64,000 bases of DNA from Planctomycetaceae bacterium (GCA_021201355.1 JAJQFC010000024.1:206-64205), one strand, 5' to 3'; positions 8,034 to 61,715 are shown, numbered from the stretch's first letter. Translations and numbers: made by a program. The notes: a model not told the origin generated them from the letters alone.

Positions 8034-8368
8034 TATCAGTGGCGGTATGGCGTTTGGAATAGTATACGATGGATTGCTTTTCCGTTTGAAATATGCACGA
8101 TGGAATCTGTAGAGCGACCGGTCGTGCCGCCGCCGCCATCGTCGTTACCGGCACTCGGCGTCGGTCCGCCGCAGCCGTTCGGTCGACGCGCAAGGCAGAT
8201 GCCGCCAACGTCGCACAAGACCCTCGGCGTCGGTGGTCGGAGCACGGAGTCCATAACCGCTCGCTCCGGACATAAAAATATTCGGCGCCGAGTAGGATAC
8301 GTATTAATTGATCGGGCCGGCTGAATCAGCAATCGCCGGCGTACCCATGACAACGGGTTAAAGGTTTT

Positions 8369-9985
8369 ATGCCAGACGCAGCCGCAAACGGGAATGTGGA
8401 ATCCGGCGGGTCCTCGGACGAGGTCGTGCGGGAACTCACGCAGAAGCAGCAGGACCTCACCGAGGCCATGCAGCGGCTTATCCGTTTCCAACGCCAGACC
8501 CTCGTCCTTAAAAACGCGCCGTCCATCGATTCCGCCCTCGACACGATGGAATCGCTTTTAATCGAAGTTATCGATTTCGCCTACGCCAGCCTCCAGTACC
8601 GGTCGGAAAACGGCATCTTTTCGCCGCTCCGGCAGATTTGCCCGGACGATATCCACCTCGACTATCCCCTTATGGAATGGGTCATGGGCACGCAGGAGGT
8701 GTCTGTCCTGCCGATAGACATCCACATGGAGGACTGCAACCTCCGGTCGCTCCTCTTCCTGCCGTTCGGGTTCCACCACATCATGCTTCTCTGGCTCGAA
8801 CAGGATACCGACGCCTTTACCCAGGAGCAGGAGGCGCTCCTCTCCATCCTGTCCCGGGAGATGGCGTCCGTCCTCGATTCGCACCACTACCGGATCAGGC
8901 TCGAAAAGACCAGGGCGGCAATGTCCGACATTATCGAATCGGTCCCGCTCGGCCTCCTTGCCCTCGATCACTAGGACAAGGTGCAGATGATCAATTCCAC
9001 CGCCGAGATCGCCCTCGACATCCGCCGTCAGGACGCGGTCGGCGCCGACTTCCACGAGGCGCTTCCGGAAAAGGTCGCCGACCTCATAGACAACTTGGAA
9101 AACACCGGCAGCATCGAGGAAGCCGAACTCGCCATCAACAAACCGGGCCGGGACAGCCAGTACCTCGGCCTCACCATCTCGCCGATGCGGAGCGAGGACG
9201 GTTCCAGCAAGTCCGGGCAGGTCGTCGTCTGCCGCGACCTCCAACTGTCCCGGGAAGTCCAGAAGCTCCGCGAACTGGACGCGATGAAAAACGACTTCCT
9301 CTCCCTCGTCACCCACAAACTGCGGACGCCCCTGACGTCCATCATGGCCTATTCGGAAACGCTCCTCATGGACGAGGAAGGCGAGGTTCCCGGGGAGTGG
9401 CGGGAATACATCACCATCATCCATTCCGAAGGCCGCCGCCTCTGCCGCCTCATTGACGACGTCCTCGATCTCACCCGCATGGAAGCGGGCAAGATGTCGT
9501 ACGACTACGAGACGCAGGATCCGAACGAGATCATCGGCGCCGTCGTCATGTCCCTGACGCCGCAACTCGAGGAAAAATGCCACCACCTCGAACTCGATCT
9601 GGACGAAAACGTCGGCGACTGCCGCCTCGCCGTCGACCGGATTACCCAGGTCTTGACGAACATCTTCAGTAACGCCATCAAGTACACCGACGCCGGCGGC
9701 ACCATCGTCATTTCGTCGAAGCGGGCCGAACCGTTCCCGGAATCGTCGACCCCGACTCTCCTCATCACGGTGAAGGACAACGGCATCGGCATTGCGCCGG
9801 AAAATCTGGACCGGGTGTTTTCGAAATTCGAAATGGTGGAATCGGTTAAGCACCACACCTCGGGGACCGGCCTCAGCATGGCCATCTGCCGGCAGATTGT
9901 CGAGGAAGGCCACGGCGGGAAAATCTGGCTCGAAAGCGAACTTGGCCACGGCACCACGGTGAATGTGCAGATTCCGGTGGCATGA
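8369..9985 (+). pseudogene. PAS-type sensor histidine kinase interrupted by one in-frame TAG
   Basis: One continuous frame-2 reading frame, broken only by TAG at 8972-8974 (ORF-track pieces 8369-8974 and 8981-9985). H-box SLVTHKLRTPLTS, N box NAIKYT, G1 DNGIGI and G2 GTGLSM. The stop falls inside the PAS-like start (SVPLGLLALDH*DKVQMINSTAE). Confidence 0.7.
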
Positions 9986-16940: not shown

Positions 16941-17134
16941 GAGTTCTAACTATTGTTTTTCCTATAAAATTCACTGTCTAACAGGATTCTAACGTCCTTC
17001 GGATTATTTTAAGATTTTTCTTCGTTTATAATTCTAGGTAAATGTATAGTCGCGTTAAACCGGCGCATTCGGCCGGGTTACCGACGGCCGGAAGCGACCG
17101 CCGCCGCCGCCTTTTTTTTCGAGAGGTCCAAAGA

Positions 17135-17635
17135 ATGGCCGAGTCCGTCCGCTTTTTCACCGAGGCCGCCGTCCAGAACCGGGTCGAGGCGGTCCTCCAC
17201 CGCACCGATCACGCCATCTACAAGTACTCGAACTTCCTATTCAACCAGATAGGAAGCACCTTCCAGCAGGCCTGCGTCCTCGCCTTTATCCATTTCAACA
17301 AGGGCTGCAACCAGCGCGCCATTGAAAAGGCCCTCCAGATCAGGAGCGCCAGCGTCACCGTTCTCCTGAACACCATGGCCGGGAAGGGCATAATCGACAA
17401 GACGCGGAATCCGGTGGACGGGCGCGAGGTCATCCTCTCCCTCACGCCGAAAGGAAAACGCGTCTTGACGAAATGCCGCGAGGTCTTCGACACCATCGAG
17501 GAGGTTGTCAGCCGGGATATCCCGCCGGAAGATCTCGACACCCTGGCCCGCATCCTGACAAAAATGGCCGACAACTGCCGTCAGGCCGAAGAAATGGGCT
17601 GGCACACCATCGAGGATATGGACGATGAACCATAA
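17135..17635 (+). CDS. MarR-family transcriptional regulator
   Basis: Winged-HTH region (NQRAIEKALQIRSASVTVLLNTMAGKGIIDKTRNPVDGREVILSLTPKG). ATG 17135 with a GAGAGG SD. Confidence 0.85.
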   Translation: MAESVRFFTEAAVQNRVEAVLHRTDHAIYKYSNFLFNQIGSTFQQACVLAFIHFNKGCNQRAIEKALQIRSASVTVLLNTMAGKGIIDKTRNPVDGREVILSLTPKGKRVLTKCREVFDTIEEVVSRDIPPEDLDTLARILTKMADNCRQAEEMGWHTIEDMDDEP

Positions 17636-17749
17636 GGCGGCGTGAGGCGGGTGCGGTTTTTCCTTGACCAATCCCGGCGGTCGGTTACCCTGAATTCTTA
17701 CCTTAACGGTGTAAGAGAGCATTTCCCTGAACCCCTTTGGAGGAAACCG

Positions 17750-18256
17750 ATGTCAGCCACGTCCATGCTTGATATTGATGAAAATCTCGTCAACGTTCTT
17801 ATTAAATGCACCAAGGACGGCCTGATGATGGCCGGCCTCAAGCCCTCCGCCATCGGCCTCGCCAAGCTCCTCCACTCCAAAGGCAACGTCTCCTCCATCA
17901 TCGGATTTGTCGGACCGATGAGCGGTTCGATGATCATCAATACCTCGGACGAATGCGCCTGTTTCATGGCCGGCCGCATGCTCGGGGAAACCCTGACGAA
18001 ACTGGACAACCAGACCCTGGACGGCCTCTGCGAAATCGCCAATATTATCGCCGGGCAGGCCAAGGCGGCCCTGTCCACCACCGATTACCGCTTCGACCGG
18101 ATTTCCGTCCCGTCCGTCATCGTCGGCAACTCCTACTCCATCTCCCACTACCGGGGCATGACGTCGGTATCTGTCGAGTTCGAGCTGCCGGAGATGCCCA
18201 TCACCCCGGGTGAACGCGGCACCTTCACGGTGAATATTTCGATGATGAAAATTTAA
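17750..18256 (+). CDS. CheX-family chemotaxis phosphatase-like protein
   Basis: ATG 17750 with a GGAGG SD. CheX-like pattern (SSIIGFVGPMSGSMIIN...LCEIANIIAGQAK). Confidence 0.7.
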   Translation: MSATSMLDIDENLVNVLIKCTKDGLMMAGLKPSAIGLAKLLHSKGNVSSIIGFVGPMSGSMIINTSDECACFMAGRMLGETLTKLDNQTLDGLCEIANIIAGQAKAALSTTDYRFDRISVPSVIVGNSYSISHYRGMTSVSVEFELPEMPITPGERGTFTVNISMMKI

Positions 18257-32374: not shown

Positions 32375-32624
32375 TCGTGAGGCGCCGGTACGGACGTCTC
32401 CGCGCCGCGCATCGGCACGCCCTGCCGACGTGCCTGGCCGACGTTCCCGGAAAGGCGGTAACGACATTTCGGTAATTTTCCGAAATTAGCTATTGCATTG
32501 CCGGTCAAAATGGCGTCAATAGTGAATGGCGTCGCCGACGGCGAAACACCGCCGCTGACGCCGGCGAACTCTATAGCAGCGACCCCGCCCCAGACGAGGA
32601 TATGTACGGTACGCCGGTCCGTGC

Positions 32625-33341
32625 ATGTTGCGTCAGGGGCGATTTTTTTTCCGATATGGTGTGAATAGTAACTGCGTGCGAATACGACTCTCCGATCATT
32701 TCACCTACGGCCGCCTATTCCGTTTCGTTTTCCCATCCATTGTCATGATGATTTTCATCTCCATTTACGGCGTCGTGGACGGCCTGTTCGTCTCGAACTA
32801 TGTCGGAAAAAACCCCGTTCGCGGCAATCAACCTGATTGTCCCGTTCCTTATGGCAATGGGGGCGGTTGGGGACGATAATTGGTTCGGGAGGCGCGGCGC
32901 TGGTGTCCAAAACGCTGGGGGAGGGAAACGGGAAAAGGCGAACCGGCTCTTCTCCATGCTGGTGTACCTGACGATCTTCATCGGCGCCGTCCTTACCGTC
33001 CTCGGGCTGTGGCTGGTCTGGCCGGCCTCCGTTCTCATGGGCGCGAGTGGCGATCTACTCGAATACTGCGTGTCGGCTTGGGGTTGGCAGGGGCGGCGAT
33101 ATCGTCGGTCATCGGGCAGGCGATCGGAGCGGTCGTTCCCATAGTCGATTTCGCCCGGAAAAACGACAGCCTGCTCCGCCTCGTCCGGCCGGCTTTCCCT
33201 TGTCGGGCCATACTGAAAGTCGCCACAAACGGCGCGTCGGAACTTCTTACTACGCTGTCGTCATCCTTCGTGAGCGTTCTCTATAACCTGCATTTCATCC
33301 GCCTCGCCGGTGAGGACGGCGTGGCCGCGTACGGCGTTATA
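32625..33341 (+). pseudogene. decayed MATE-family efflux transporter remnant
   Basis: MATE-like segments switch frame at least four times: frame 3 FVFPSIVMMIFISIYGVVDGLFVSNYVGKN, frame 1 PFAAINLIVPFLMAMGAVG, frame 2 IIGSGGAALVSKTLGEGNGK, frame 1 ANRLFSMLVYLTIFIGAVL...LEYCV, frame 3 AGAAISSVIGQAIGAVVP...GVAAYGVI. An internal piece and the whole C-terminal half are missing. Confidence 0.7.
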
Positions 33342-33412
33342 CCGTCACCGTACCGTTTTTCCTCGTCATGCGGAAACGGTTTAAGTACGCAGAGCCTACG
33401 CCTGGCGTAGAA

Positions 33413-35365
33413 TTATCGGGTGGCCGCCTCGTCCTCGCTACTGTGGGCGTTCATGTTCGGCACCGGTTCCAACGAAAGGTGAGGCACGCCTTCCGAAGCC
33501 TGATCGGCCGCGCCCTCCACCGCCTTCACGATGGTCTCGTCCGTACTGTATTGCCGGACAATGTCCATGAATTCCTCGCCGGTGATTGTCTCGTGTTCGA
33601 GGAGGAAATCGGCGAGACGGTGGAGAAGGTCCATATTTCCCTTCAAAACTTCAACCGCCTTGTCGTGGCCTGACTTGACTATCTGGATAACCTTTTCATC
33701 AATCCGCGAACCGGTCTCGTCCGAACAGTTCAGGCCGGGGTCGCCCCCGAGGTACCGGTTCGTCATCACTTCCATCGCCGTCATGCCGAATTCGTCTGTC
33801 ATGCCGAACCGCGCCACCATGGACCGGGCCAGTTTCGTCATCTGTTCGATATCGTTGGCGGCGCCGGAGGTGGCGGTGTTGAAGACGAGTTCCTCCGCCG
33901 CCCGGCCGCCGGCGAAGGTGGCGATGCGGCCGAGGAGCTGCTCCCGCGTCATGAGGAACCGCTCCTTTTCGTCCACCTGCATGGTATAGCCGAGGGCGCC
34001 GGACGACCGGGGAACGATGGTGATTTTATGCACAGGCGCCGCGTCCGTCACCTTGGCGGCGACGAGGGCGTGGCCAATTTCATGGTACGACACCATGCGT
34101 TTTTCCTCGGGCGAAATCACCGTGCTCTTCCGCTGATACCCGGCGATGACCACCTCGACGGATTCCATCAGATCTTCCTGGGATACCCGGTCCCGCCCCT
34201 CACGCACCGCCCGGAGCGCGCCTTCGTTAATGATGTTTTCCAGTTCCGCCCCGGACGCGCCGGCGGTGGCCCGGGCAATAAAGTTCAAATCGATGTTGTC
34301 GGCCATTTTGACGCCCTTCGCGTGGACGCGGAGAATGGCTTCGCGGCCGACCAGATCCGGCAGTTCCACCGGAATCCGCCGGTCGAACCGGCCCGGCCGG
34401 AGGAGGGCCGGATCGAGGGATTCCGGGCGGTTGGTGGCGGCGAGGATGACGACGCCCTTGCAGCCGTCGAAGCCGTCCATCTCGGCGAGGAGCTGGTTGA
34501 GGGTCTGTTCCCGTTCGTCGTTGCCGCCGGGCATGCCGCCGCTGTCGCGCTTTTTGCCGATGGTGTCGATTTCGTCGATAAAAATGATGCACGGCGCCTT
34601 CTCCGTCGCCTGCTTGAAGAGGTCGCGGACCTTGGCCGCGCCCATGCCGACAAACATTTCGACAAACTCCGACCCGGATATGGAGAAGAACGGCACATGC
34701 GCCTCTCCGGCCACCGCCCGGGCGAGGAGAGTCTTGCCGGTGCCGGGAGGCCCGACGAGGAGGGCGTCTTTCGGGAGGACGGCGCCGATGGCGGAGTATT
34801 TGTCCGGGGAATGGAGGAAGTCGACGATTTCCCGGAGGGCGTCCTTGGCTTCGTCCTGGCCGGCGACGTCGTCGAAGCGTTTGCCGGTTTCGGATTCGGC
34901 GTAGATTTTGGCGTTGGACTTGCCGAGAGTCAGGGCGTTTTTCCCGCCGAAACTTTTCTGAAAGCCGCGCGCCAGCTATTGCCCGATCAGGATAAAAATG
35001 AACAGGGGCAAAATCCATGACAGGAGAAAACTCACTATCGGCGAGGTCTGGTGCGGTACGACCCGGGTAAACTTCACACCCTGCGTGTGGAGCCGGTCGA
35101 CGAGATCCGCGTCCTGCCAGGCGCCGGTGGAGTTAAGGACCGGTTCGCCTTCCTCGTTCTCCGTTTCATAGAGGATGCGATCGTCCTCGAGCGTCACCTC
35201 CCGAACGTTCCCCGCATCGAGTTCGGTGAGAAAGGTGCCGTAATCGACCTCATGAACCTTCGGTTTGGTGATGGCCGGAAACAGGAGCGTATTCATGAGC
35301 ATGAGGGCGATAAGAAGAAACATGAAATAGGGGATCGGCTGTTTCTTCGGCGAGTCTTCCAGCAT
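33413..35365 (-). pseudogene. ftsH: ATP-dependent zinc metalloprotease FtsH interrupted by one in-frame TAG
   Basis: Single frame of 651 codons (including the terminal stop), broken only by TAG at 34976-34978 just after TM2 (...LFIFILIGQ*LARGFQKSFGG...). Walker A GPPGTGKT, Walker [31 protein letters not shown] and HEIGH are all intact. ORF-track pieces are 34976-35365 and 33413-34714. Confidence 0.8.
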
Positions 35366-35437
35366 GGCTATCCTTCCTGTTACCGGTTCGGCCGCTCCCC
35401 TCCGGAGCGCCGACGGCCGGCATCTGTAAACATCCTG

Positions 35438-35477
35438 TCAAAAACACGGCGAGACGCCGTGGTCGCGGCGTCTCGCC
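35438..35477 (-). terminator. intrinsic terminator downstream of the FIST gene
   Basis: 12-bp stem GGCGAGACGCCG / CGGCGTCTCGCC, followed on the minus strand by GTGTTTTTG. Confidence 0.65.
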
Positions 35478-35683
35478 CTGGTCGTTCCGGCAGTGGCTTC
35501 GTATGGTGCATTTCGCTGTTCATTGCCGTCCTTCCCGCCGCACATCCTGTCGGGCCGGCTCGAAACCGCCCAGCGGGAATCCGGGCCGGGTCGTATCGGT
35601 GTACGGCGTCGAATGCGCGAGAGAGTGTCTCATATTAATCACATTGCCGGATCCGTCCCGTCCATACCGACAGCGCCATAATT

Positions 35684-38864: not shown

Positions 38865-39338
38865 TTACGCCTGCTTAACCGGACTCAGCACATCCAGGAG
38901 TTGGGTCTGGCAGAAATCGCTCCGGTAGGCCTCGATGCCCGGACGGCTGAAGTCGAGGACATAGTCGGACTGCTCGCCCGGCCACTTCATATAGATATAC
39001 GAATACACGTCGCTCAATACCGACAGGGTGACGCCGGCGCAGCAGGCGTTCAGGCCGCCCGGCACGGTGAACTCCTCTATCCCTTCCGGTACCGCCGCGC
39101 CGGGCGCCAGCGGCATGACCACCCAGTAGTCGAAGTCGTTTTCCGTAATCATGACGGAGACGCCGAAGGACTGCCCCGGGTAGGCCGGGTCGGCCGGGAA
39201 CGACGCCATGCGCGGACCGAAAACTTCGCTCCACAGCTTCGGGCAATCTTCGAACGCTTTCGCCATCGAGGTCTGGACTTTTATTCCGGCCGCCTTGATG
39301 GTCGGCTGGTCGATGATGGTGACGGTGAATTGTGACAT
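38865..39338 (-). CDS. GyrI-like small-molecule-binding (AraC effector-domain-like) protein
   Basis: 157 aa with the GyrI-like pattern (KAAGIKVQTS...FGVSVMITENDFDYWVVMP...IPEG). Sits between lexA and recA. Confidence 0.6.
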   Translation of the reverse strand: MSQFTVTIIDQPTIKAAGIKVQTSMAKAFEDCPKLWSEVFGPRMASFPADPAYPGQSFGVSVMITENDFDYWVVMPLAPGAAVPEGIEEFTVPGGLNACCAGVTLSVLSDVYSYIYMKWPGEQSDYVLDFSRPGIEAYRSDFCQTQLLDVLSPVKQA

Positions 39339-40700: not shown

Positions 40701-41165
40701 ATGTCAGCAAATGTCAACAATGACGGGTTTGGCAAAAACTGGAGCGACAAATTGCGTCTCCTCGACGCGATAGACGACATGCGGGAGCCTGTCCGACCCC
40801 GTGAGGAACAGGCGCTTCAGCTCGATCCGAACCAGCCAACCATCGAAATGCTGCAGGAAAAACTCCGCTGTTACGAACAGACCTGCGCCATGCTCGAGCG
40901 CGAAGTTCAGGAACTGGAACAGCAAACCATTGCCGCTATCGCCGAGGCCGGCCGCCTCCGCCATGAACTGGACAAGCACGCCGCCGAACGGCTGCGCCCG
41001 TCCGCCGTCATCGACGTTGTCGAACGTGACAGCATCAGCCGCGTCATCCGCGATTCGGAAAACGAACGCCGCCTCCTTCTCGATGCCCTGGAAAACAGCG
41101 AGGCCGAACTGGCCCGGATGGTCAAAACCCTCGATCTTGTCGCCAGGAAGCTTCAGGTCGCCTGA
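40701..41165 (+). CDS. hypothetical coiled-coil protein
   Basis: ATG 40701 is preceded by GGAGAAGAAGG. Heptad-rich sequence (LQEKLRCYEQTCAMLEREVQELEQQ...). The upstream part of ORF 40353-41165 is AT-rich and unlikely to be coding. Confidence 0.5.
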   Translation: MSANVNNDGFGKNWSDKLRLLDAIDDMREPVRPREEQALQLDPNQPTIEMLQEKLRCYEQTCAMLEREVQELEQQTIAAIAEAGRLRHELDKHAAERLRPSAVIDVVERDSISRVIRDSENERRLLLDALENSEAELARMVKTLDLVARKLQVA

Positions 41166-41197
41166 TCCTCACCGTATCCACCACCCGCAGGCAGTTC

Positions 41198-41238
41198 GCC
41201 AGGCCATCCTTCTCCAAGTATGGTCTGGCTGGTTTTTT
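41198..41238 (+). terminator. intrinsic terminator after the coiled-coil gene
   Basis: Stem GCCAGGCCAT / ATGGTCTGGC, then TGGTTTTTT. Confidence 0.65.
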
Positions 41239-41513
41239 GACCGACCCGAGACCTCATCACGTACGCTTCCGCAATCATTCTGTCCATGCTAACAGCTCGG
41301 CATCGAAACAGACGCTATCCAAAGCGTAAACGAAAACAAAGCCGGTAAACAGTCTCCATTTTTACCTATCCCCATCTAACATGGAGGGGCCGGAAACTCA
41401 GAGCGGTTTGTCGGTCTCTATTTCGGGGTTGAATTACGATAGTCCTCCCTGGAAATGACGGAATACGGGAGTCTATTAACACTCCGTTACGAGATTCAAT
41501 AAAACGCGCGTAA

Positions 41514-41545
41514 GCAAACAAAAAACCAGGCCGCAACCGGCCTGG
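41514..41545 (-). terminator. intrinsic terminator after the zinc-finger protein gene
   Basis: Stem CCAGGCCG / CGGCCTGG with loop CAAC, followed on the minus strand by TTTTTTGTTT. Confidence 0.65.
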
Positions 41546-41589
41546 CTTCAATTCGTGTACGTTGCATCAAATAATGCGCCGTGTCACGC

Positions 41590-42450
41590 CTACCGTTCAG
41601 GGTAAAACCCTTTCTCAGTCACCTTGCCGTTTTTCGTATTAACGTAGATGCGGTAGAATGCCCGTTTCCGCTCGGACGGGAGATCCTTTCCAGCCCAGAA
41701 CTGCCAGACAGCGATGCGGCGTTTGTCATTGGATTCCTGGTAGCGGGCTTTTCGGAGCATCGGCATGATATCCTGAAAATCTCCGCCGATCCGCACGTAA
41801 TTTTTGTCCAGCCAATCACAGGCCTCGAGCCGCTCAGCCGGCTGTTTTGAGACGAGCCGTTCGATCCACTGTTCGGCACCGGCCGGAGCATTGGCGAAAG
41901 AGCGTTCCTGCATGATGCGGCGGCCTTCTTCGGGCTGCTCAAAATCCTCGGAAGACAGCATAAAGTACTTTTCCGTCGTGTGGTTTTCCAAATAGCCCTT
42001 GCCCGCGCACTTCTGGCACTTCCGGGTAAGGGCGACGCCTTTGACCTTTTCAGCAAACGGCAGCGTGTCTCTCCCGGTTCCTTTACAATCCGGACAGGTA
42101 TCGTTCCGCCAGGTGACGAGACGAAGCATATAATCCGGATTGACGCTGGCAGTGATGCGAACCGGCGTTCCCTTCTGGTCGACGGTTTTTTTCCGATAGT
42201 ATTCCCCGCGTTCAATAGTGGCCTTGACCTCATGAAGGATTTCCGGCCGGTTGATCTGGAGTTCGGCCAGGTATTTCCCAAGATGATACGAATTGAGGTT
42301 CACTGCAATGTAATCGCCGCGCCCGGGCGCCATGGAAAAGGAAAAGGCCCGTTCACCCGCGGTGGCCATCCCCGGACCAATAGCGGAAACGGAGCCGATT
42401 ACCACGGCGCTGGCAACAACAAGCCATGACCACAAGGATGCCCTATGCAT
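41590..42450 (-). CDS. hypothetical exported protein with a DnaJ-type double CxxCxGxG zinc-finger motif
   Basis: ATG 42450 (MHRASLWSWLVVASAVVIGSVSA signal-like). CPDCKGTG and CQKCAGKG motifs. Confidence 0.55.
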   Translation of the reverse strand: MHRASLWSWLVVASAVVIGSVSAIGPGMATAGERAFSFSMAPGRGDYIAVNLNSYHLGKYLAELQINRPEILHEVKATIERGEYYRKKTVDQKGTPVRITASVNPDYMLRLVTWRNDTCPDCKGTGRDTLPFAEKVKGVALTRKCQKCAGKGYLENHTTEKYFMLSSEDFEQPEEGRRIMQERSFANAPAGAEQWIERLVSKQPAERLEACDWLDKNYVRIGGDFQDIMPMLRKARYQESNDKRRIAVWQFWAGKDLPSERKRAFYRIYVNTKNGKVTEKGFYPER

Positions 42451-42559
42451 ATGGTGCGTCTCCACAATGACGGGATAGTAATGAGTAGTCGAAAACGACG
42501 ACCGCCTAACGCGACCGCTTTTTCCTACTATACCAGAAGAAAGGTTGAAATCAACATAT

Positions 42560-43148
42560 ACTGTCGTTTGTTCCACGTGGAACATTCGGGATGGTCTTAA
42601 ATGTCCCTTTCACGGTTTCACGTGGAACACTACGGTTCCGCTTTACGGCTGATTGTATCTTTCAGCCAAGGATGCAGCCGAGGTGTTGCCTGCCGGTTCC
42701 AGTGAAACAGTCCTGTCCTGTGAAATCATCATACGCCGGCATATGGTTGTTTCACGTGGAACTAGTGTTGAATCCCTGTTGAATTGTACTGTTGAATATT
42801 GAATACTGTGCAATATGAGATATGATCAGATGGGATTCAACACCATCACACCCGCAGCCAACCGTCCACAAACCCGTTCCATTTCTCCTTTCCCCATACC
42901 ATTAAGTTATTTACCACTATTTTGACAAATGTGGAGGCCATAGTAGTAGTTGTAGTTATAACGGGAGTTAACCTAAAAAGAAAAAACCAAAATCCAAGGC
43001 CGTTCTCTGCCACTAACCCGACGGACCGTTTGTTCATCCAATCACCGACCGTGTCGCTCTCACCTGTTTTTGCCTTTACAACCCCTCCCCGGGAGTATAT
43101 TATACCGCCTTCACTCTTCGACTGACCCGTGTTGCAAAGGCTACCATA
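42560..43148. other. candidate chromosomal replication origin (oriC) upstream of dnaN
   Basis: About 590 bp with no convincing ORF. Contains the palindromic boxes whose halves resemble DnaA boxes (GTGGAAC vs TGTGGATAA), an AT-rich GTTGAAT repeat block (42767-42805), and TCCACA / TGTGGA boxes near 42866 and 42930. Gene orientation flips here. dnaN and a DUF721 gene are adjacent. Confidence 0.5.
42570..42762. repeat. four copies of the palindromic 14-mer GTTYCACGTGGAAC (one degenerate)
   Basis: GTTCCACGTGGAAC 42570-42583, GTTTCACGTGGAAC 42615-42628, GTTCCAGTGAAAC 42696-42708 (one base short), GTTTCACGTGGAAC 42749-42762. Confidence 0.8.
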
Positions 43149-44237
43149 ATGGAATTCTCCGTCAATAAAACCAAGTTCTCCGAAGCGCTTTCGCTTGTTA
43201 CCGCAGTCGTGCCGGAACGCGCTTCCCGGCCGGTTCTCCAGAACCTCCTCCTAATCGGGAATGAGGATTCGACAATCACTCTAGCCGCCACCGATTTGGA
43301 AATCGGCCTGAAAATGAATCTGGAAGTAACTGACCTGAAAAGCCCGACATCCGTCCTCCTGCCGGCCAGCCGTCTGAACGCCCTGGTGAAAGGCACTTAT
43401 GCCGACGACATCCACATGACCATTGAGGACAACAAGGCGGAGATGAAAACAAGCTACGGCCGTTTCCAGGTGCCGGGAATGGATGTTCTTGATTACCCGA
43501 CAATCCCCGATTTTGCGGCCGAAGGTGTATTCCTTGTTCACGGCGACGACTTTGTCGAAGCGGTGCAGAAGACCCTGTTCGCCACGGCCAAAGGCGATAC
43601 CCGCTATGCCCTCAGTGGAATATACGTCAATGTCGCCGATGGGTCGGCCGAATTTGTCGCCTCGGACACGCACCGCCTGTCCCTGGTGAAAAAGAAGGTA
43701 AAGAACCCGGACGCGGCGGCCGCCGATGCCATTCTCCTCACCAAAGGCATGAACACCCTGGCCCGCCTCGCTTCCGGCTCCGATATGGTGGAAATGGCGA
43801 TAACGGCCAAGGAGCTGCTGGCGCGGACGCCGAACGCCACCGTCTTTATCCGCCGGGTCGAGGGGATGTTCCCCCGCTACCAGGACGTCATTCCGGAAAA
43901 GCGCGATACCCAGTTCACCGTCGACCGGGACGAACTCCTGCGGTCGCTCCATAGTATCGGGCTTATCAGTTCGGACGAGTCGAAGGCGGTTCTTTTCACC
44001 ACTGGCGAAAACAGCCTCAAGCTTTCAGCCAGCAGTGAAAACGGCGAAGGCGATTTGACCCTGGACGCCGAGGTATCGGGCGGTCCGGTGGAAATCAAGT
44101 TCAATTACGTGTTCCTCGTCGACGCCCTGAAGAACATCGCCGAAGACAAGGTCACCGTCCAATTCAAGGACGCGGATAATCCGGTACGCATCGACGCCGG
44201 CGACTTTGTCTATGTTCTCATGCCGATGAACCGGTAG
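43149..44237 (+). CDS. dnaN: DNA polymerase III beta sliding clamp
   Basis: 362 aa with the typical N-terminus (MEFSVNKTKFSEALSLV...RPVLQNLLL) and C-terminus (...VYVLMPMNR), followed by TAG. Confidence 0.9.
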   Translation: MEFSVNKTKFSEALSLVTAVVPERASRPVLQNLLLIGNEDSTITLAATDLEIGLKMNLEVTDLKSPTSVLLPASRLNALVKGTYADDIHMTIEDNKAEMKTSYGRFQVPGMDVLDYPTIPDFAAEGVFLVHGDDFVEAVQKTLFATAKGDTRYALSGIYVNVADGSAEFVASDTHRLSLVKKKVKNPDAAAADAILLTKGMNTLARLASGSDMVEMAITAKELLARTPNATVFIRRVEGMFPRYQDVIPEKRDTQFTVDRDELLRSLHSIGLISSDESKAVLFTTGENSLKLSASSENGEGDLTLDAEVSGGPVEIKFNYVFLVDALKNIAEDKVTVQFKDADNPVRIDAGDFVYVLMPMNR

Positions 44238-44241
44238 GCCT

Positions 44242-44733
44242 ATGGCCAAGGCAATACGGCGAACCAAAAAGACCCGGATACGTGACGAGGCCGGACCGGA
44301 ATGGCAACGGTATTTCGACCAGGTGAAATGGCGTCGCGAACGATTGACCAGTCCGAAATACCGGCCGCTGGTTATCTGTCGTTACGAGGTGGATGGGGTC
44401 GAGCGGGTGGTGGCGCGGCCGAAAAGCTTTCCGACGCCGGTAAAAAAAATCGTCGAAAAAGTGGTGAACCTTAAAGCGCTTGGCATTGCAATAAACATTG
44501 AAAGTATACGTGAGGCTTGGACGGCGGTGGTGGGTGAGGAAATCGCCAAGGATACCGGGCTGTATTCCTTCAAGAACGGCATTGTCACCATTGACGTTTA
44601 TTCGCCTACCCTGTTTCAGGAACTACGTGCCTTTTACGCCGACGGCATCCAGAAAGATCTTCGCGACAAATGGCCGCTTTCCGTCCCTTTGGTTGAGGTT
44701 AAATATCGTTTGGCCCGAAAACAGAAGTTATGA
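44242..44733 (+). CDS. DUF721 (DciA-like) protein
   Basis: C-terminal AWTAVVGEEIAKDTGLYSFKNGIVTIDVYSPTLFQELRAF matches the DUF721 pattern. Sits directly after dnaN. Confidence 0.7.
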   Translation: MAKAIRRTKKTRIRDEAGPEWQRYFDQVKWRRERLTSPKYRPLVICRYEVDGVERVVARPKSFPTPVKKIVEKVVNLKALGIAINIESIREAWTAVVGEEIAKDTGLYSFKNGIVTIDVYSPTLFQELRAFYADGIQKDLRDKWPLSVPLVEVKYRLARKQKL

Positions 44734-45860
44734 CCATAGCGACGTCACCAGGATTATATGTACACATCCCGTTCTGTCGGGCCCGGTGCGGCTATTGCAC
44801 CTTTACCAGTAGCGTCTATTCAAAAGAAACCGCCGACCGTTACGTCGCGGCGCTGTGCCGGGAGGTGGCGGCCAAAGACATCGTCCTGCCATCAACCGTC
44901 TTTATCGGCGGCGGCACGCCGACCGCCTTGTCAATGGCGCAACTGGACCGCGTGCTGGCCGTCCTTCCGGAACCCGCCCCCGGCGCCGAATATACCTGCG
45001 AAGTCAATCCGGACACGGCGACGCGGGAAAAGTTGGCGCTCCTCCGGAGCTATGGCGTCAACCGTCTGTCGTTCGGCGTCCAGACATTCTCGCCAGATGG
45101 TTTACGGGTGCTGGGGCGCTGCCACGACAGTCAGACGGCGGCTGAGGCTGTGACTATGGCCCTCGAAATGGGGTTCCCCGCGGTTAACCTTGACCTTATT
45201 CACGGCTGGCCCGGACAAACCGAAGCCTTTCTGCTTTCCGATTTGGAACAGGCAATCGGCTTGGGCGTTCACCACCTCTCGACGTATTCCCTGATTCTGG
45301 ACGAATCGGCATCACGATACGAGTATTTGTCCGGACTGTTAGGCCATGCCGACAGCGATTCCGAGCGGTTCGGGGAATTTTTTCAAACCAGCCACGACTA
45401 TCTTACCAGCCACCAATTCAAGCATTACGAAACAAGCAACTACGCGAGACCGGGTTTTATTTGCCGTCATAATTGGAACATCTGGCGTGGCGGGGAGTAT
45501 TGGGGAATCGGCCTCGCCGCCCACTCGCACCATCAGGGAAGGCGTTATGCGACGACCGGAGATATGACCGCATATCTCGAAAACGCCGGAATGCCGTCAA
45601 ACCTTGAGTCATTTTCGGAAACCCTCGACGACGAGAGGAAAGCGAGGGAGACCGCCGTATTTTGGCTTCGGTTGTATGAGGGAATCGACCTGGCCGAATT
45701 TTCCCACCAGACCGGATTCGACTTCTTTGACCTGTATGCCACTGTGGCACCTCCGCTCCTGGCCAAAGGCTGGCTGGAACATTCCGCCGACCACAGCCAT
45801 ATTCGCGTTCCCGAAAAACTCCAATCGGTATTGGACACCGTTCTGGTTGAACTGATTTAA
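44730..45860 (+). CDS. hemW: radical SAM heme chaperone HemW (HemN-like)
   Basis: LYVHIPFCRARCGYCTF CxxxCxxC motif and the HemN-like fold. ATGA overlap with the upstream gene. Confidence 0.85.
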   Translation: MTIATSPGLYVHIPFCRARCGYCTFTSSVYSKETADRYVAALCREVAAKDIVLPSTVFIGGGTPTALSMAQLDRVLAVLPEPAPGAEYTCEVNPDTATREKLALLRSYGVNRLSFGVQTFSPDGLRVLGRCHDSQTAAEAVTMALEMGFPAVNLDLIHGWPGQTEAFLLSDLEQAIGLGVHHLSTYSLILDESASRYEYLSGLLGHADSDSERFGEFFQTSHDYLTSHQFKHYETSNYARPGFICRHNWNIWRGGEYWGIGLAAHSHHQGRRYATTGDMTAYLENAGMPSNLESFSETLDDERKARETAVFWLRLYEGIDLAEFSHQTGFDFFDLYATVAPPLLAKGWLEHSADHSHIRVPEKLQSVLDTVLVELI

Positions 45861-47187: not shown

Positions 47188-47730
47188 ATGTCAACGCAAG
47201 CATCGGTACGCATGAACAAGGTGGCCGACAAGGCCGGGACCGAACCCGACGTCGTCGCCGCCGTGCGGAAATGGAAATCGAAACGGGGCAGCCTCATCAT
47301 GGTGCTCCACGAGATCCAGAACGCCCGCGGTTATGTCCCCCGCGACGTCGCGCTGTACCTGTCCCGGGAACTGGACGTCCCCCTGGCGCGGATCTACGAG
47401 GCCCTGACCTTCTACCACTATTTCAAGCTTGAACCGCCCGGCAAGGCCATCATCTCCGTTTGCACCGGCACTGCCTGCTATCTCAAGGGTTCCCAGGCGC
47501 TGGTGGACGAATTCGCCCGGGAGACCGGCGCGCCGGTCGGCGGTTCCACCGAGGACAAGCTATTCCACCTCCAATGCGTCCGCTGTGTCGGCTGCTGCGG
47601 CCTGGCGCCGGTGGCTATCGTCAACGGGAAGACCTACGGCAAATTGACGCCACCCGACATCAAGAAAATCGTCCATGAATGGCGCGAACACTTCGCCGGC
47701 GATGCGCCCGAAGAAAAGACGACGGAATAA
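47188..47730 (+). CDS. NuoE-like 2Fe-2S subunit of a multimeric [FeFe]-hydrogenase (HydC/HndA-like)
   Basis: LHEIQNARGYVP..., CTGTACYLKG and CVRCVGCCGLAP. GGAGG SD. Confidence 0.85.
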   Translation: MSTQASVRMNKVADKAGTEPDVVAAVRKWKSKRGSLIMVLHEIQNARGYVPRDVALYLSRELDVPLARIYEALTFYHYFKLEPPGKAIISVCTGTACYLKGSQALVDEFARETGAPVGGSTEDKLFHLQCVRCVGCCGLAPVAIVNGKTYGKLTPPDIKKIVHEWREHFAGDAPEEKTTE

Positions 47731-48019
47731 AGAACGTTCAATGAACTCCGGAAGCCTTTTCTGAACATGATGTCCGGTCCACGCAGACCGGTTTCAAGAA
47801 AGGCTGTCGAACCAATTTCCGCCACCATCGGCAGGCCTGCAAGTTTTTCTATTTTTGGCAAAGACCGGCGTTCGGCATTTCTTCAAAACGGGCAGGTGTA
47901 CGCAGTACTGCCCGAAAATTGAGAACGCCGTCACCTTTTATAGAAGCCGGTTTATCCGGTTCTAAAAAAGAAAAACCCGCGACCGCACCGATACTGTCCA
48001 CCGCATAGGAAGAACAATC

Positions 48020-49693
48020 ATGCCCAAGGTCGACCTCAAGGAAATTCGCGAAAAGGAACTGGCCAAACAAAAGGCGTTCAAAGCGCGCCTGTTTGTCTGC
48101 GCCTCAACCGGCTGCGTCGCCTCCGGCTGCAAGGAAGTGATGGCCGCCGTCACGGAAGACCTCAAGTCCCACGGCCTCGACAAGGAAGTGCAGATCGTCC
48201 CCACCGGCTGCATGGGCCTGTGCAGCCACGGCCCGCTCATCCGCGCCGAAGTGCCGGGCCAGTAGCCCGTCCTCTACACCGAAATGGACGGCATGCTCGC
48301 CCGCCTCATGGTGGCGGAACACCTGGAACCGGCCATCCGCCGCCCGGAGACGTTCACCGGCGCGCCCGAGTTTTTGAAAGACCACACCCTCAGCCTCGAC
48401 ACGCCGTTCTTCACCGATCAGGTCAAGGTCGTTCTTGCCAATTCCGGCCACATCGTCCCGGAAAGCATAGACGACTACATCGCCGACGGCGGCTACGACG
48501 CCTGGCAGCGCGTCGTCACCTCGATGACGCCGCAGGACGTCATCCGGGAAATCACCGAATCCGGCCTTCGTGGCCGCGGCGGCGGCGGCTTCCCCACCGG
48601 CAAAAAGTGGGAACTCACGGCCCAGGTCCAGAATGAGGAAAAGTTCATCATCTGTAACGGCGACGAAGGCGACCCGGGCGCCTATATGGACCGGTCCATC
48701 CTTGAAGGCAATCCCCACGCCGTCATCGAAGGCATGCTCATCGCCGGCTTCGCCATCGGCGCGACCAGCGGCTGGTTCTACGTTCGGGCCGAATACCCGC
48801 TGGCGGTCGAACGCCTCGACAAGGCCCTGAAAGCGGCCCGCCGCTACAACCTTCTCGGCAAGGACATCCTCGGGACCGGCCGCGATCTCGACCTGGAAAT
48901 CCGCCTCGGCGCCGGCGCTTTTGTCTGCGGCGAAGAAACCGCCCTTATCGCCTCTATCGAAGGCAAGCGCGGTTCCCCGACGCCGCGTCCGCCGTACCCG
49001 TCCGTCAAGGGTCTATGGGGCATGCCGAGCTGTGTGAATAATGTCGAAACGCTTGCCAACGTCCCGACCATCATGAACCGCGGCGGCGCCTGGTTCGCCT
49101 CGATGGGGACGGAAACGTCCAAGGGAACGAAGGTGTTCGCCCTCACCGGCAAGGTCAAACACTCCGGTCTTATCGAGGTGCCGATGGGGATATCGCTGAA
49201 ACGAATTGTCGAATCCATCGGCGGCGGCACGTCGACGGGGAAAAAGATTAAAGCGGTGCAGACCGGCGGCCCGTCCGGCGGCGTCATTCCGGAAAAGGAA
49301 ATGGATCTGCCGGTATGCTACGACCACCTGAAAAAGGTCGGGTCAATCATGGGGTCTGGCGGCATGATCGTCATGGACGAAGACGACGACATGGTCGACA
49401 TCGCCAAGTTCTACCTGGGATTCACGGTTGACGAAAGTTGCGGTAAATGCGCTCCCTGCCGCATCGGCGGCAAACAGCTTCTTCTTCTTCTCGAAAAGAT
49501 CGCCGACGGCAAGGCGGTTGAGGAGGACATCGAGGATTTGAAGCGCCTCGCCGTTTCCATGAAGAAGGCCTCCCTGTGCGGCCTTGGCCAGACCGCGCCG
49601 AACCCGGTGCTGTCGACCCTCAATTTCTTCCTGGACGAATATCAGGCGCGGCTCACCACCAAGGAGGCGTTGGCGGAGAAGGATAAGGCGTAA
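48020..49693 (+). pseudogene. NuoF-like flavoprotein subunit of [FeFe]-hydrogenase (HydB/HndC-like) interrupted by one in-frame TAG
   Basis: Single frame 2 reading frame, broken only by TAG at 48263-48265. The break is inside the N-terminal thioredoxin-like 2Fe-2S domain, after both Cys pairs (CASTGC, CMGLC): ...GPLIRAEVPGQ*PVLYTEMDG... Downstream, GRGGGGFPTGKKW and SCGKCAPCR are intact. ORF-track pieces are 48020-48265 and 48284-49693. No SD precedes ATG 48284. Confidence 0.75.
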
Positions 49694-49840
49694 GGTGTCC
49701 TTGCGAAGTTTTTTCTATTGACCGTTTTTTGAATGAGCAACTTTTTCTAAATAGAAAAATAGACATCGTCCAAACGTAAAATAGAAAACGGACAACCCAA
49801 ACTTTCAGTCATCCCCGAATTCAGAGAAGGACAGTAAACC

Positions 49841-51586
49841 ATGATAACCGCAACCATCAACGGCATCCAGGTGAGCGTCGAACCTGGTACCAGCATATAC
49901 AAGGCCGCGCACCAGGCGCAGGTCAACATCCCCACCCTTTGCTATCACCCGGACCTGGCGCCGACCGCCGCCTGCGGCATCTGCGTCGTCAAGGTGAAGG
50001 GCGCCGCCAACATGGTCCGCGCCTACACGACGCCGGTGGCGCAGGGCATGGAAATCGTCACCCAGGATCCGGAAATCGTCCAGGTCCGCCGCTCGGTTCT
50101 CGAGATGATCCTGTCGAACCACCCGAACGAATGCCTCACCTGCCTCCGCTCCGGCGAGTGCGAACTGCAAAACCTCGCCCGCGACTTCGGCATCTACAAT
50201 TCGAAGTTGCCGAAAATCATCACCGAACGGGAAAAGGACGCCTCAACCAAGTCCATCGTCCTCGACTCCCGGAAGTGCATTCGCTGCGGCCGCTGCACCC
50301 AGGTCTGCCAGGAAATGCAGAACGTCTGGGCCCTGTCCATCGAACACCGCGGCCTCGACGCCGTCGTCCAGCCGGCCGGCGACATCGAACTGGCGGAAAA
50401 TCCCTGCGTCCGCTGCGGCCAGTGTTCGGCCCACTGCCCGGTCGGCGCCATTTACGAATACGACGAAACCGAACTGGTGCGGAAAGCGCTTATGGATCCG
50501 GAAATGCACTGCATTGTGCAAATCGCTCCGGCGGTCCGCGTCTCCATCGGCGAATCGTTCGGGTTCGCGCCGGGTAAGAACCTTACCGGCAAACTCTACA
50601 CCGCCCTCCGCCGCATGGGCTTCGACCAGGTGTTCGACACCAACTTCGGCGCCGACGTCACCATCATGGAAGAGGCGTCGGAACTGGTCGAGCGGATAAA
50701 GTCCGGCAAGGGGGCGATTCCCCTCATCACCACCTGCTGTCCGTCGTGGGTCGACTTTATGGAGAAATTCGACGCCGACATGATTGAGTATTTCTCGAGC
50801 TGCAAGTCGCCGCAGGCCATTGTCGGCGCGCTGTCGAAGAGTTATTACGCCGAAAAGGCGGGGATACCGGTCGACAAGATCTTCATGGTGTCCATAATGC
50901 CCTGTACGGCGAAGAAGTTTGAAATCGTTCGGGCCAAGGAAATGTTCTCGTCCGGCCACCAGGACATTGACGTCTCCCTGACGACGCGGGAACTGTCCCG
51001 CATGCTGAACCAGGCCGGCATCGAATTCGCCTCCCTCCCGGACGGCCAGGCCGATTCGCCGCTCGGGCAGTACACCGGCGCCGCCACCATCTTCGGCGAG
51101 ACCGGTGGCGTGATGGAGGCGGCGCTCCGCACCGCCTACCACATGATTACCGGTAAGGAACTTGACCAACTTGAATTCGAGTCCATCCACACCATGGACG
51201 GCATCAAAGAACTCGCCATCGACATCGACGGCCTGAACCTCCGCATCGCCGTCGCCCACGGCCTCCGGCATGTGGAAGAGGTTATTGAACGCGTCCGAAC
51301 CGCCTTGGAAAAAGGCGAAGAAGTGCCGTGGCACTTTATTGAAGTGATAGCCTGTCCCGGCGGCTGCGTCGGCGGCGGCGGCCAGTTCTGGGGTGTCAAC
51401 GACGGCATCCGGAAGATGCGGGCGAAAGGCCTCAGTGAAGACGATCGCGGCAGCGCCCTCCGGCGGAGCCATGAAAATCCGGATGTCAAAAAACTGTACG
51501 AAGAGTTCATCGGCGCGCCCCTCAGCGAGAAGGCGCACAAATTATTCCACACCCATTACCAGCCGCGCAGCCAGTACCGGCGGTAA
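49841..51586 (+). CDS. hydA: [FeFe]-hydrogenase catalytic subunit
   Basis: N-terminal 2Fe-2S and 4Fe-4S domains. H-cluster motifs TTCCPSWV, MPCTAKKFE and EVIACPGGCVGGGGQ. Confidence 0.95.
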   Translation: MITATINGIQVSVEPGTSIYKAAHQAQVNIPTLCYHPDLAPTAACGICVVKVKGAANMVRAYTTPVAQGMEIVTQDPEIVQVRRSVLEMILSNHPNECLTCLRSGECELQNLARDFGIYNSKLPKIITEREKDASTKSIVLDSRKCIRCGRCTQVCQEMQNVWALSIEHRGLDAVVQPAGDIELAENPCVRCGQCSAHCPVGAIYEYDETELVRKALMDPEMHCIVQIAPAVRVSIGESFGFAPGKNLTGKLYTALRRMGFDQVFDTNFGADVTIMEEASELVERIKSGKGAIPLITTCCPSWVDFMEKFDADMIEYFSSCKSPQAIVGALSKSYYAEKAGIPVDKIFMVSIMPCTAKKFEIVRAKEMFSSGHQDIDVSLTTRELSRMLNQAGIEFASLPDGQADSPLGQYTGAATIFGETGGVMEAALRTAYHMITGKELDQLEFESIHTMDGIKELAIDIDGLNLRIAVAHGLRHVEEVIERVRTALEKGEEVPWHFIEVIACPGGCVGGGGQFWGVNDGIRKMRAKGLSEDDRGSALRRSHENPDVKKLYEEFIGAPLSEKAHKLFHTHYQPRSQYRR

Positions 51587-57610: not shown

Positions 57611-58552
57611 TCACTGACCGGCCATGAACGCTTCGACGTTGTCCTTGGTGATGAGTTCCGCCTTGGTGACGGTATGCGGCGGCAGTTTTTTGCCGGCCAG
57701 AACGTCGAGGTAGGCCTTGATGGCGGCGCGGGCCTGAAGGGCCGGATACTGGGCGACGCTTCCCATGAGGGAACCTTCCCGGATAGTGAGGATGTCGTCG
57801 TTACTGGCGTCGAAATCGAAGACGGCTATTTCGCCGACGCGGCCGGCCTGCTCGATGGCCTGGATGGCGCCCTGGCCCATTTCGGCATTGACCGACCAGA
57901 CGATGCTGACGTCGGGGCGCGAGGTCAGGAGGTTCTGCATGACGTTGAAGCCGAGGTTCCGGTCGCAATTGGCGGTCTGGGAGGCGACGATTTCAAAGCC
58001 GGGCTTGCCTTCGACCTGGTCCCGGAAGCCCATGAGGCGCTGCTCGAGGGCGTCGACGCCGGCCGGGCCTTCAAGAAGGACGACCTTGCCGCCGGGGAGC
58101 TTTTCCGCCGCGTATTTCCCGGCGAGGGCGGCGGCCTGGTACTGGTCGATGCCGGTGTAGGTCTCGACGCGTCCGCCGTCCTCGGCGAGCGCCGTCATGT
58201 CGATGGTGTCGTTGACGAGGATGACCGGGATGTCGGCGCGATTGGCCTGGACGATGACCGGATTCAGAGCTTTCGAATCGGCGGCGGAGAGGATGATGGC
58301 GTCGAAGTTGGAGATGATGGCGTTCTCGACCATCTGGATCTGCCGCTCAACATCCATTTCCTTTTCCGGGGCCTGGAAGGAAAGTTCCACATTCATTTCT
58401 TCGGCAGCCTTTTCAGCGCCGTCCCGCATGTCGATCCAGAACTGATCGGTCATGGCCTTGACGACATAGGCTATACGGGTCTTTTCAGCCGAGACGGCGA
58501 CGCCGGCACTCAAGGCGAACAGAAGGGTGAAGGCGAGCAATACTTTTTTCAT
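57611..58552 (-). CDS. sugar ABC transporter substrate-binding protein (ribose/RbsB-type)
   Basis: ATG 58552 with a GGAG SD. Signal peptide MKKVLLAFTLLFALSAGVAVSA. Periplasmic-binding fold type I pattern. Confidence 0.85.
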   Translation of the reverse strand: MKKVLLAFTLLFALSAGVAVSAEKTRIAYVVKAMTDQFWIDMRDGAEKAAEEMNVELSFQAPEKEMDVERQIQMVENAIISNFDAIILSAADSKALNPVIVQANRADIPVILVNDTIDMTALAEDGGRVETYTGIDQYQAAALAGKYAAEKLPGGKVVLLEGPAGVDALEQRLMGFRDQVEGKPGFEIVASQTANCDRNLGFNVMQNLLTSRPDVSIVWSVNAEMGQGAIQAIEQAGRVGEIAVFDFDASNDDILTIREGSLMGSVAQYPALQARAAIKAYLDVLAGKKLPPHTVTKAELITKDNVEAFMAGQ

Positions 58553-58663
58553 GATTTTCTCCTCGTGGTAGACAACGGGACGGTTCTTAGAAAAACAGCG
58601 AAAAAACGGCACACGTTCGGACATTTTGGGTTATGGAGCCGGTCTGGTGGTGGACCGCCCGGT

Positions 58664-59608
58664 TCAGGCGCGCTTCCGGTTCCGGAACGAATCCAGCAGT
58701 ACGGCGGCGATGATGATGACGCCTATGATCAGTTTCTGAAGGTACGACGACACGTTCATCAGGTTCAGGCCGTTCCGGATGACTCCCATGATGATGGCGC
58801 CGAGCAGGGTTCCCCACACGCTCCCGGAACCGCCCAGGAGGCTGGCGCCGCCGATGACGGACGAGGCGATGGCGTCGAGTTCGTAGCCTTCCCCGGCGAT
58901 GGATTGGGCCGAGTTCAGCTTGGCGACGAGGACGATGCCGGCGAGGGAGGCCATGACGCCGCAGACGGTATAGGCCAGGGTCTTGGTGCGGTCGACATTG
59001 ATGCCGGAGAGGCGGGTGGCTTCCTCGTTACCGCCGATGGAGTAGATGTAGCGGCCGAATTTGCGGTATTTCAGGACATACCACATGATGGTGTAGAGGA
59101 TGAGCATGATGATGATCTGCACCGGAATCTCGGCGATGCGGCCGGAGCCGATCCAGCGGAACGAGGCCGGATAGCCGGTGATGGTCTTGCCGTTGGCGAG
59201 GGTCAGGGCGGCGCCGCGGGCGATGGACATCATGCCGAGGGTGGCGATCATCGGTTGCAGCTTGAAGCGGGAAATCAGGATGCCGTTCAACGTGCCGCAA
59301 ATGGCGCCGATGATGATGGCGACGAGGATGGCGACAATCGGCGTGACGCCCATGCCGACGATCAGCTTCCCCATGACGATTCCGGAAATGGCGAGGACCG
59401 AACCGACGGACAGGTCGATGCCGCCGGTAAAGATAACGACGCTGATACCGAGGGCTATGATGGCGTTGACGGTGACCTGCTGAAGGATGTTCACAAGGTT
59501 CGCGCGGCTGCTGAACACGGGCGACAGGACAGACATGAGAATGCACAACGCCACCAGGACCAGAACCGGCGTCAGGTTCGACATGTCGATTTTCTTGGCT
59601 TTCATCAT
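58664..59608 (-). CDS. sugar ABC transporter permease (RbsC-type)
   Basis: Multi-TM BPD_transp_2-type sequence (GGIDLSVGSVLA motif). The start, ATG 59608 or 59605, is uncertain. Confidence 0.85.
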   Translation of the reverse strand: MMKAKKIDMSNLTPVLVLVALCILMSVLSPVFSSRANLVNILQQVTVNAIIALGISVVIFTGGIDLSVGSVLAISGIVMGKLIVGMGVTPIVAILVAIIIGAICGTLNGILISRFKLQPMIATLGMMSIARGAALTLANGKTITGYPASFRWIGSGRIAEIPVQIIIMLILYTIMWYVLKYRKFGRYIYSIGGNEEATRLSGINVDRTKTLAYTVCGVMASLAGIVLVAKLNSAQSIAGEGYELDAIASSVIGGASLLGGSGSVWGTLLGAIIMGVIRNGLNLMNVSSYLQKLIIGVIIIAAVLLDSFRNRKRA

Positions 59609-59781
59609 ACTCCTCTCATTCTTTCGGACGTGGCAAGAGAAAGGCCGCATCGGCAAAAATCGGGCACAACGCGCCCGGCGCTGAAGCGGAAACGCTCCGG
59701 AGCGTGGCGCGGCGGTTGAAATACGGTCGTCATTCGCGACCGCGTCATTAAGGGGATCGGGGGTGGACGTGGGTCACTCTC

Positions 59782-61317: not shown

Positions 61318-61715
61318 GAATCCCTCCCATTCAACAGGGCACGGTACGCCGTGCTGGAATTCAGATAGACTGGGCACGCGCCCAATACGAACGAAAAAAA
61401 CATCCCGCCGAAGCGAGGTTCCGCTATTTTAGGGGTCATGGCTGCAAAAAACAGGCAAAGGAAGCGGCGAAGACGACGCCGCAGCACGCGTGAGGGAAGA
61501 AAGCACGGACGGTGTACGCGCCTAGTTATGTGGTTGTAACGACACTATAACGCACCAAAACGCGGTTGTCAACTCCAATGTTTGGAAAAACAGCGTGATG
61601 GCGATACGGAGCATCTGTTACGTTGGCGGAACATGTTGAAAGATATATGGATAACTGACTATAAATCCTTTGTGAAAATATTGTGTACGCGCCCAGTTAA
61701 TCGGGAGAGCGAAGG

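Follow-up and report, generated by a model that had tools for sequence, protein, structure and literature searches.

Within the 64-kb stretch of planctomycete DNA analysed here (the window), a gene of the FtsH family is interrupted by one in-frame amber codon. This raises the question of whether the codon is decoded, so that a full-length protease is still made, or whether the gene has very recently been lost. Comparison with close relatives points to loss. We consider it likely that ftsH is a recent pseudogene private to one strain, carrying two lesions (W130amber and G200D), and that the strain or its MAG bears a high private load of nonsense mutations.

The interrupted ftsH frame

The translation and the Pfam searches gave the following features of the locus.

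33413-35365, minus strand: ftsH frame from ATG 35365 to TAA 33413, with 650 sense positions, the terminal TAA and one interruption
34976-35365, minus strand: N-terminal ORF of 129 aa with TM1, the periplasmic FtsH_ext domain and TM2 (GenBank CDS MCD7895285.1)
34976-34978, minus strand: in-frame amber codon (codon 130), TGG (Trp) to TAG by G>A, which is C>T at 34977 on the plus strand
33413-34975, minus strand: downstream remainder of 520 codons with the AAA, lid and M41 domains, lacking a canonical start before Walker A
34766-34768, minus strand: codon 200, GAC (Asp) for GGC (Gly), in the PKG motif that leads into the Walker A strand; a second private lesion

As the earlier note had stated, the frame of 651 codons on the minus strand contains a single internal stop, and frame and translation agree on it: the TAG is read from 34978 to 34976 in the context CAA TAG C. 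The 129-aa ORF upstream, which is also called on the Logan contig SRR15221351_6119, ends in LPLFIFILIGQ, and the amber codon follows directly after TM2. FtsH_ext (PF06480) was found in this piece, and AAA (PF00004), AAA_lid_3 (PF17862) and Peptidase_M41 (PF01434) were found in the 520-aa piece, which gives the domain order of FtsH (TM, periplasmic FtsH_ext, TM, AAA, AAA lid, M41). The intact allele of a conspecific (P0126) scored 739.9 bits against TIGR01241 (cut-off 600). In domain architecture and motifs the gene is therefore like FtsH (TIGR01241, the membrane-anchored AAA+/M41 zinc metalloprotease), and the cytoplasmic part of the intact allele shares 50-60% identity with the solved FtsH of T. 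maritima. The window gene differs from the family in that the frame is broken after TM2 and in that Asp replaces the invariant Gly ahead of Walker A; the membrane anchor and the catalytic domains are no longer joined in a single uninterrupted chain, with the TAG standing at codon 130.

The catalytic motifs downstream had been described as intact, which holds for the translation, where Walker A (GPPGTGKT), Walker B, SRH and HEIGH are all kept. The statement on restart sites is also correct for canonical codons: the first in-frame ATG, GTG or TTG past the TAG is GTG 34714, which lies beyond the Walker A motif. Non-canonical starts do exist before it, namely a CTG immediately adjacent to the TAG and ATC 34906. 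Exact-sequence matches place the window in a 64,630-bp contig of an NCBI MAG labelled 'Planctomycetaceae bacterium', with the proteins MCD7895259-MCD7895307. The C-terminal ftsH CDS in GenBank is MCD7895284.1 (497 aa; locus tags LUG50_), and we infer that its start codon is ATC 34906 (34904-34906, minus strand). Both halves of the gene have been deposited in GenBank as ordinary proteins with no pseudogene flag.

The gene had also been called perfect apart from the amber codon, and this does not survive the comparison with homologs. We scanned the alignment columns that are at least 93% conserved and in which the window differs, and residue 200 turned out to be Gly in 120 of 120 homologs (the best hits aligned) and in every conspecific copy, but Asp in the window. 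The codon is GGC in the sister species (L001) and in three conspecific loci (L091, L092 and L094), and Gly also occupies this position in the solved structures of T. maritima FtsH. Like the amber codon, G200D is a G>A change; on the plus strand the window has T at 34767, where the three conspecific loci have C. The invariant Gly of the PKG motif is thus replaced in the window.

Relatives, polarity and age of the lesions

We searched 5.8 billion proteins, in which the closest intact FtsH (P0001) shares 94% identity with the window protein. Further matches at 69-82% come from MAGs labelled Planctomycetaceae or Planctomycetota and form 26 full-length clusters. Among the 120 best hits, the amber column is occupied by Leu (70), Phe (24), Ile (15), Tyr (7), Met (2), Trp (1) and Val (1), and the lone Trp belongs to the closest hit. 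The locus of this hit (L001 in GCA_965299365.1), which represents a sister species, is syntenic with the window and has CAA TGG CTG in place of the CAA TAG CTG of the window.

Conspecific assemblies with 99.4-99.6% nucleotide identity were also found (GCA_965299525.1, GCA_020860405.1, GCA_020860485.1, Logan DRR845748 and several other Logan runs). FtsH is intact with 650 aa in four conspecific assemblies, and the conspecific protein P0126 equals the window FtsH at all residues except Trp-130 and Gly-200. Both TGG and GGC are present in GCA_965299525.1, GCA_020860405.1 and Logan DRR845748. Alignment to close relatives, which the earlier note had proposed, thus places Trp at codon 130: it is TGG in all conspecific loci (L091, L092 and L094) and in the sister species, and position 34977 of the plus strand is C in the three conspecific loci and T in the window. 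An amber codon at this position is absent from every relative compared, and none of the relatives compared has a split ftsH.

With the sister species as the outgroup, W130amber and G200D are both polarised as derived on the window branch. At 33698 and 34799 it is the window that has the ancestral base, while a derived base is common to all the other conspecifics, indicating that the window represents a real separate lineage and not the common strain with errors added.

The dN/dS of ftsH between the window and the sister species is 0.06 (0.04 upstream of the TAG and 0.07 downstream), and the neighbouring genes have similar values. This long-term ratio indicates strong purifying selection until very recently, and hence a recent inactivation. 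The lineage-specific amino-acid changes in FtsH are balanced (5 vs 5) with no elevated rate, which fits such recency. Two of the three window-derived changes in ftsH are damaging. As in a recent pseudogene, the disruption is absent from the conspecific and sister orthologs, arose on the window branch and is joined by a further damaging lesion at an invariant column. Of the two readings that the earlier note had offered, a very recent pseudogene or a stop codon that is read through, the former is borne out by the TGG of the relatives, the low dN/dS and the derived state of both lesions.

Other nonsense codons and the mutation spectrum of the window branch

To find other interrupted genes, we looked for stops flanked by same-frame coding-like sequence and then checked the domains. 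Counting that of ftsH, the roughly 55 genes of the 64 kb contain four private nonsense codons, all of which arose by G:C>A:T transitions, giving three TAG and one TGA. The other three and the neighbouring decayed genes are as follows.

8351-9985, plus strand: PAS/HisKA/HATPase histidine kinase (538 aa); TAG at 8972-8974 inside the PAS domain (CAG>TAG, LALDH-stop-DKVQMIN)
48263-48265, plus strand: TAG in a NuoF/HydB-like subunit of 557 aa (CAG>TAG, AEVPGQ-stop-PVLYTEM), with Gln in the intact 557-aa conspecific protein
47188-51586, plus strand: operon of NuoE, the NuoF(HydB)-like subunit and [FeFe]-hydrogenase, with hydA at 49841-51586
61716-62762, minus strand: LacI-family regulator; TGA at 62517-62519 between the HTH and the sugar-binding domain (TGG>TGA, SGSFG-stop-EVDRG)
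32466-33400, plus strand: remnant of a MatE efflux gene directly downstream of ftsH, frameshifted and 3'-truncated

The amber site of the histidine kinase is Gln in two conspecific proteins (P0149 and P0150), with C>T at 8972, and the stop site of the LacI-family regulator is Trp in three (P0143, P0144 and P0146), with C>T at 62517. This regulator adjoins an ABC sugar-transporter operon (57611-61377). The amber codon of the NuoF/HydB-like gene is derived on the window branch. In hydA of the same operon, all seven changes derived on the window branch are nonsynonymous (W>R, P>L, H>Y and others), with the A>G and T>C types among them, which together with the nonsense codon in the adjacent hydB looks like real operon decay. 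The hydA of the sister species is called as two ORFs of 153 and 423 aa (L095, 11823-13568). These data suggest that the hydrogenase has decayed repeatedly.

The MatE gene beside ftsH is an older pseudogene. Its remnant was recovered by tblastn as fragments in frames 3, 1 and 3, which cover only residues 1-275 of 443, with 276-443 missing. It has also decayed in conspecifics (locus L091 has no intact MatE here), and the intact 443-aa protein is found in the sister species GCA_965299365.1. Two other candidates for split genes, MarR/CheX (17042-18256) and GuaA/LipA, were rejected, each being a pair of separate genes. Besides, a GyrI-like/Cass2 gene between recA and lexA (38865-39338, minus strand; 157 codons) has four nonsynonymous and one synonymous window-derived changes.

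The window was compared with GCA_965299525.1 over 54.5 kb, in which 186 sites differ (178 transitions and 8 transversions). The coding differences comprise 65 nonsynonymous, 55 synonymous and 4 nonsense changes. The polarised changes are distributed as follows.

Window-derived: total 54; nonsynonymous 29; nonsense 2; synonymous 18; intergenic 5; GC>AT 42
Conspecific-derived: total 51; nonsynonymous 16; nonsense 0; synonymous 15; intergenic 20; GC>AT 39

About 80% of the polarised changes are GC>AT, the dominant mutation type of the species. Random GC>AT transitions in the genes of the window are expected to be 43% synonymous, 55% nonsynonymous and 2.7% nonsense, and the stops that arise from transitions should be TAG (68%), TGA (24%) and TAA (8%). 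The observed three TAG and one TGA therefore match mutation alone. The number of nonsense changes is slightly high under neutrality (4 vs about 1.5 expected; Poisson P about 0.07), indicating that nonsense alleles have not been purged on the window branch. The ratio of nonsynonymous plus nonsense to synonymous changes on this branch (31:18) reaches or exceeds the 1.34 expected under neutrality, and its substitutions look unfiltered by selection. At the strain level, both branches have a ratio of nonsynonymous to synonymous changes close to that expected under neutrality. The split between coding and intergenic changes differs between the branches (Fisher p = 4e-4), and this difference is weaker after removal of the noise at contig ends. 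The four nonsense changes and G200D are all C>T on the plus strand. Hypermutation or strand-coordinated deaminase damage was considered and is unsupported: the window-derived changes include 23 C>T vs 19 G>A, and the branch does not exceed the conspecific one in length (54 vs 51).

Alternative readings and the origin of the gene

A sequencing or assembly artefact, or a minority allele within the sample, would leave the real ftsH intact, with the TAG and G200D coming from the consensus of a low-coverage bin. Of the alternatives this one keeps the most weight, and we still regard it as unlikely. The allele is seen in the data of one run only (SRR15221351), in which the Logan contigs of the organism are short (1.5-7 kb), suggesting a modest coverage. 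The unfiltered look of the window changes, seen in the 31:18 ratio, in nonsense changes at or above the neutral level and in the asymmetry between coding and intergenic sites, would also suit errors, and in other MAGs of the species the contig ends carry changes that are clearly error-like (L094 and L091). On the other hand, two different assemblers agree: over 34153-35643 (1491 nt) and 41149-45568 (4420 nt), the window and the Logan contigs of SRR15221351 share 100% identity. The first stretch includes both ftsH lesions, and it derives from the same reads as the MAG. That a second assembler reproduces both lesions makes an artefact of the assembler unlikely. Moreover, the two branches share one mutation spectrum, with no excess length on the side of the window, which also has ancestral alleles at sites where the others are derived, as a distinct strain would; and the seven to zero changes in hydA, with A>G and T>C among them, fit real decay better than damage-type errors. 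As to the quality of the other bins, L094 (GCA_020860405.1) and the contig ends of L091 have transversions that look like errors, and residues that are scrambled (examples are V>G, D>G and Q>P). Scrambled or error-like residues are also seen in the proteins P0122, P0124, P0130, P0143 and P0149, which come from bins of modest quality.

Decoding of the TAG by a suppressor tRNA, by recoding of the pyrrolysine type or by near-cognate readthrough at a weak TAG-C would yield a full-length FtsH. The +4 C is indeed present, and work in E. coli by Poole, Brown and Tate is said to have found that C at +4 weakens termination. TAG makes up three of the four private nonsense codons, and there are somewhat more nonsense changes than neutrality predicts. 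The only likeness to known amber recoding, however, is the in-frame TAG in a conserved gene. The codon is not conserved, and relatives have no TAG there but Trp, or Leu, Phe, Ile or Tyr. With 68% of transition-derived stops expected to be TAG anyway and a TGA as the fourth private stop, the three in-frame TAGs lose force as a sign of TAG-specific suppression. TAG is also a common genuine terminator in the window. It closes no fewer than ten intact genes, in four or five of which the context is TAG-C, and terminates fumC, FIST, lexA (TAG-C), dnaN, guaA, a second MatE gene (MatE2) and others, whose ends match those of their orthologs or the Pfam model. A genome-wide reassignment of TAG was rejected on this ground.

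The earlier note had suggested a search for decoding machinery. No tRNA with a CUA anticodon was found in the syntenic gene tables or in the 64-kb window, in which the sole RNA gene is the following.

4031-4117, minus strand: tRNA-Leu(TAA)

The Pfam families of the Pyl genes were likewise absent from the scanned ORFs of the window and from the syntenic gene tables. The 126 nt from the TAG onwards fold no better than shuffled sequences (z = +0.55), which gives no sign of a stimulatory RNA structure downstream. A read-through product would, in any case, still have G200D. We therefore hold decoding of the codon to be very improbable, and the read-through branch of the earlier note finds no support. 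A more general leakiness of termination, caused by a suppressor tRNA or by weakening of a release factor, could let the strain tolerate premature stops. If true, it would explain why four private stops (vs about 1.5 expected) occur in conserved genes, including the constrained ftsH, but we give it only a slight chance.

Least probable of all, to the point of being negligible, is a split FtsH, in which translation would stop at the TAG and re-initiate at the adjoining CTG or at ATC 34906, the start annotated in GenBank, giving a stub and a working soluble AAA-protease: the split occurs in no relative, is private to one strain and goes together with the replacement of an invariant residue (G200D). 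The cytoplasmic part of FtsH from thermophiles, made as a soluble construct, forms hexamers and has been crystallised, and the PDB matches 2ce7 and 2dhr are, we take it, such constructs; against a split enzyme counts that membrane anchoring is generally needed for the membrane-protein substrates of FtsH.

The likely reading remains a recent pseudogene. In one planctomycete strain, a G>A change turned Trp-130 (TGG) into an amber codon right after TM2, and a second G>A replaced the invariant Gly-200 before Walker A by Asp. Translation should then stop at codon 130 and leave only a membrane and periplasmic stub of 129 aa, and any product restarted downstream would be without the membrane anchor and would carry G200D. 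The amber mutation of ftsH belongs to a set of at least four nonsense mutations that are private to the strain within the 64 kb. In these respects the case resembles recent unitary pseudogenes, in which a single nonsense codon separates close strains: there is a one-step TGG>TAG, a low long-term dN/dS, a second hit in the gene, other private nonsense codons nearby and an older neighbouring pseudogene (MatE). No substantive difference from them was found, and only the density of four nonsense codons in about 55 genes stands out. What speaks against a simple knockout is that the clade keeps ftsH under strong constraint, as seen in the 26 full-length clusters at 69-82% and the dN/dS of 0.06.

The origin of the gene bears on how its loss may be tolerated. 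Down to 67% identity, every named relative of the window RecA belongs to the Planctomycetota. Together with the presence of DciA and LptF/G, this indicates that the host is a diderm planctomycete. FtsH has a different affinity. Outside its own clade it is closest to Bacillota proteins in the protein search (66-69% identity, including Clostridia), and almost all of the best 80 genome matches listed for it are labelled Bacillota (61-68%). Although the host is a planctomycete, its gene thus clusters with the FtsH of Bacillota, and the ftsH of this clade is probably a xenolog acquired horizontally from that phylum, judging from these matches. A second, native ftsH is plausible in that case. FtsH is essential in E. 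coli and dispensable in several other bacteria. A search of the literature on planctomycete FtsH paralogs gave nothing usable. That the protease is normally essential, as the earlier note had it, is therefore doubtful here, where a planctomycete seems to have a xenolog of Bacillota origin. The ftsH of this strain has presumably lost its function, and the strain would tolerate the loss, possibly owing to the status of the gene as an extra copy of Bacillota descent.

In conclusion, nothing in the ftsH case departs from known biology. It carries a caution, namely that a lone in-frame stop in a gene of a MAG needs comparison with conspecifics before recoding is invoked; here that comparison reveals a knockout by a single TGG>TAG step, along with another lesion that had been hidden. 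Of minor interest are the apparent Bacillota origin of the ftsH of the clade and the unusually dense set of fresh nonsense mutations in one planctomycete strain, whose substitutions look unselected. If this were the only ftsH copy, it would be a surprise to see a diderm with LptF/G lose it completely, and if the strain is without another ftsH and thrives, the dispensability of FtsH or leaky termination would be worth attention.
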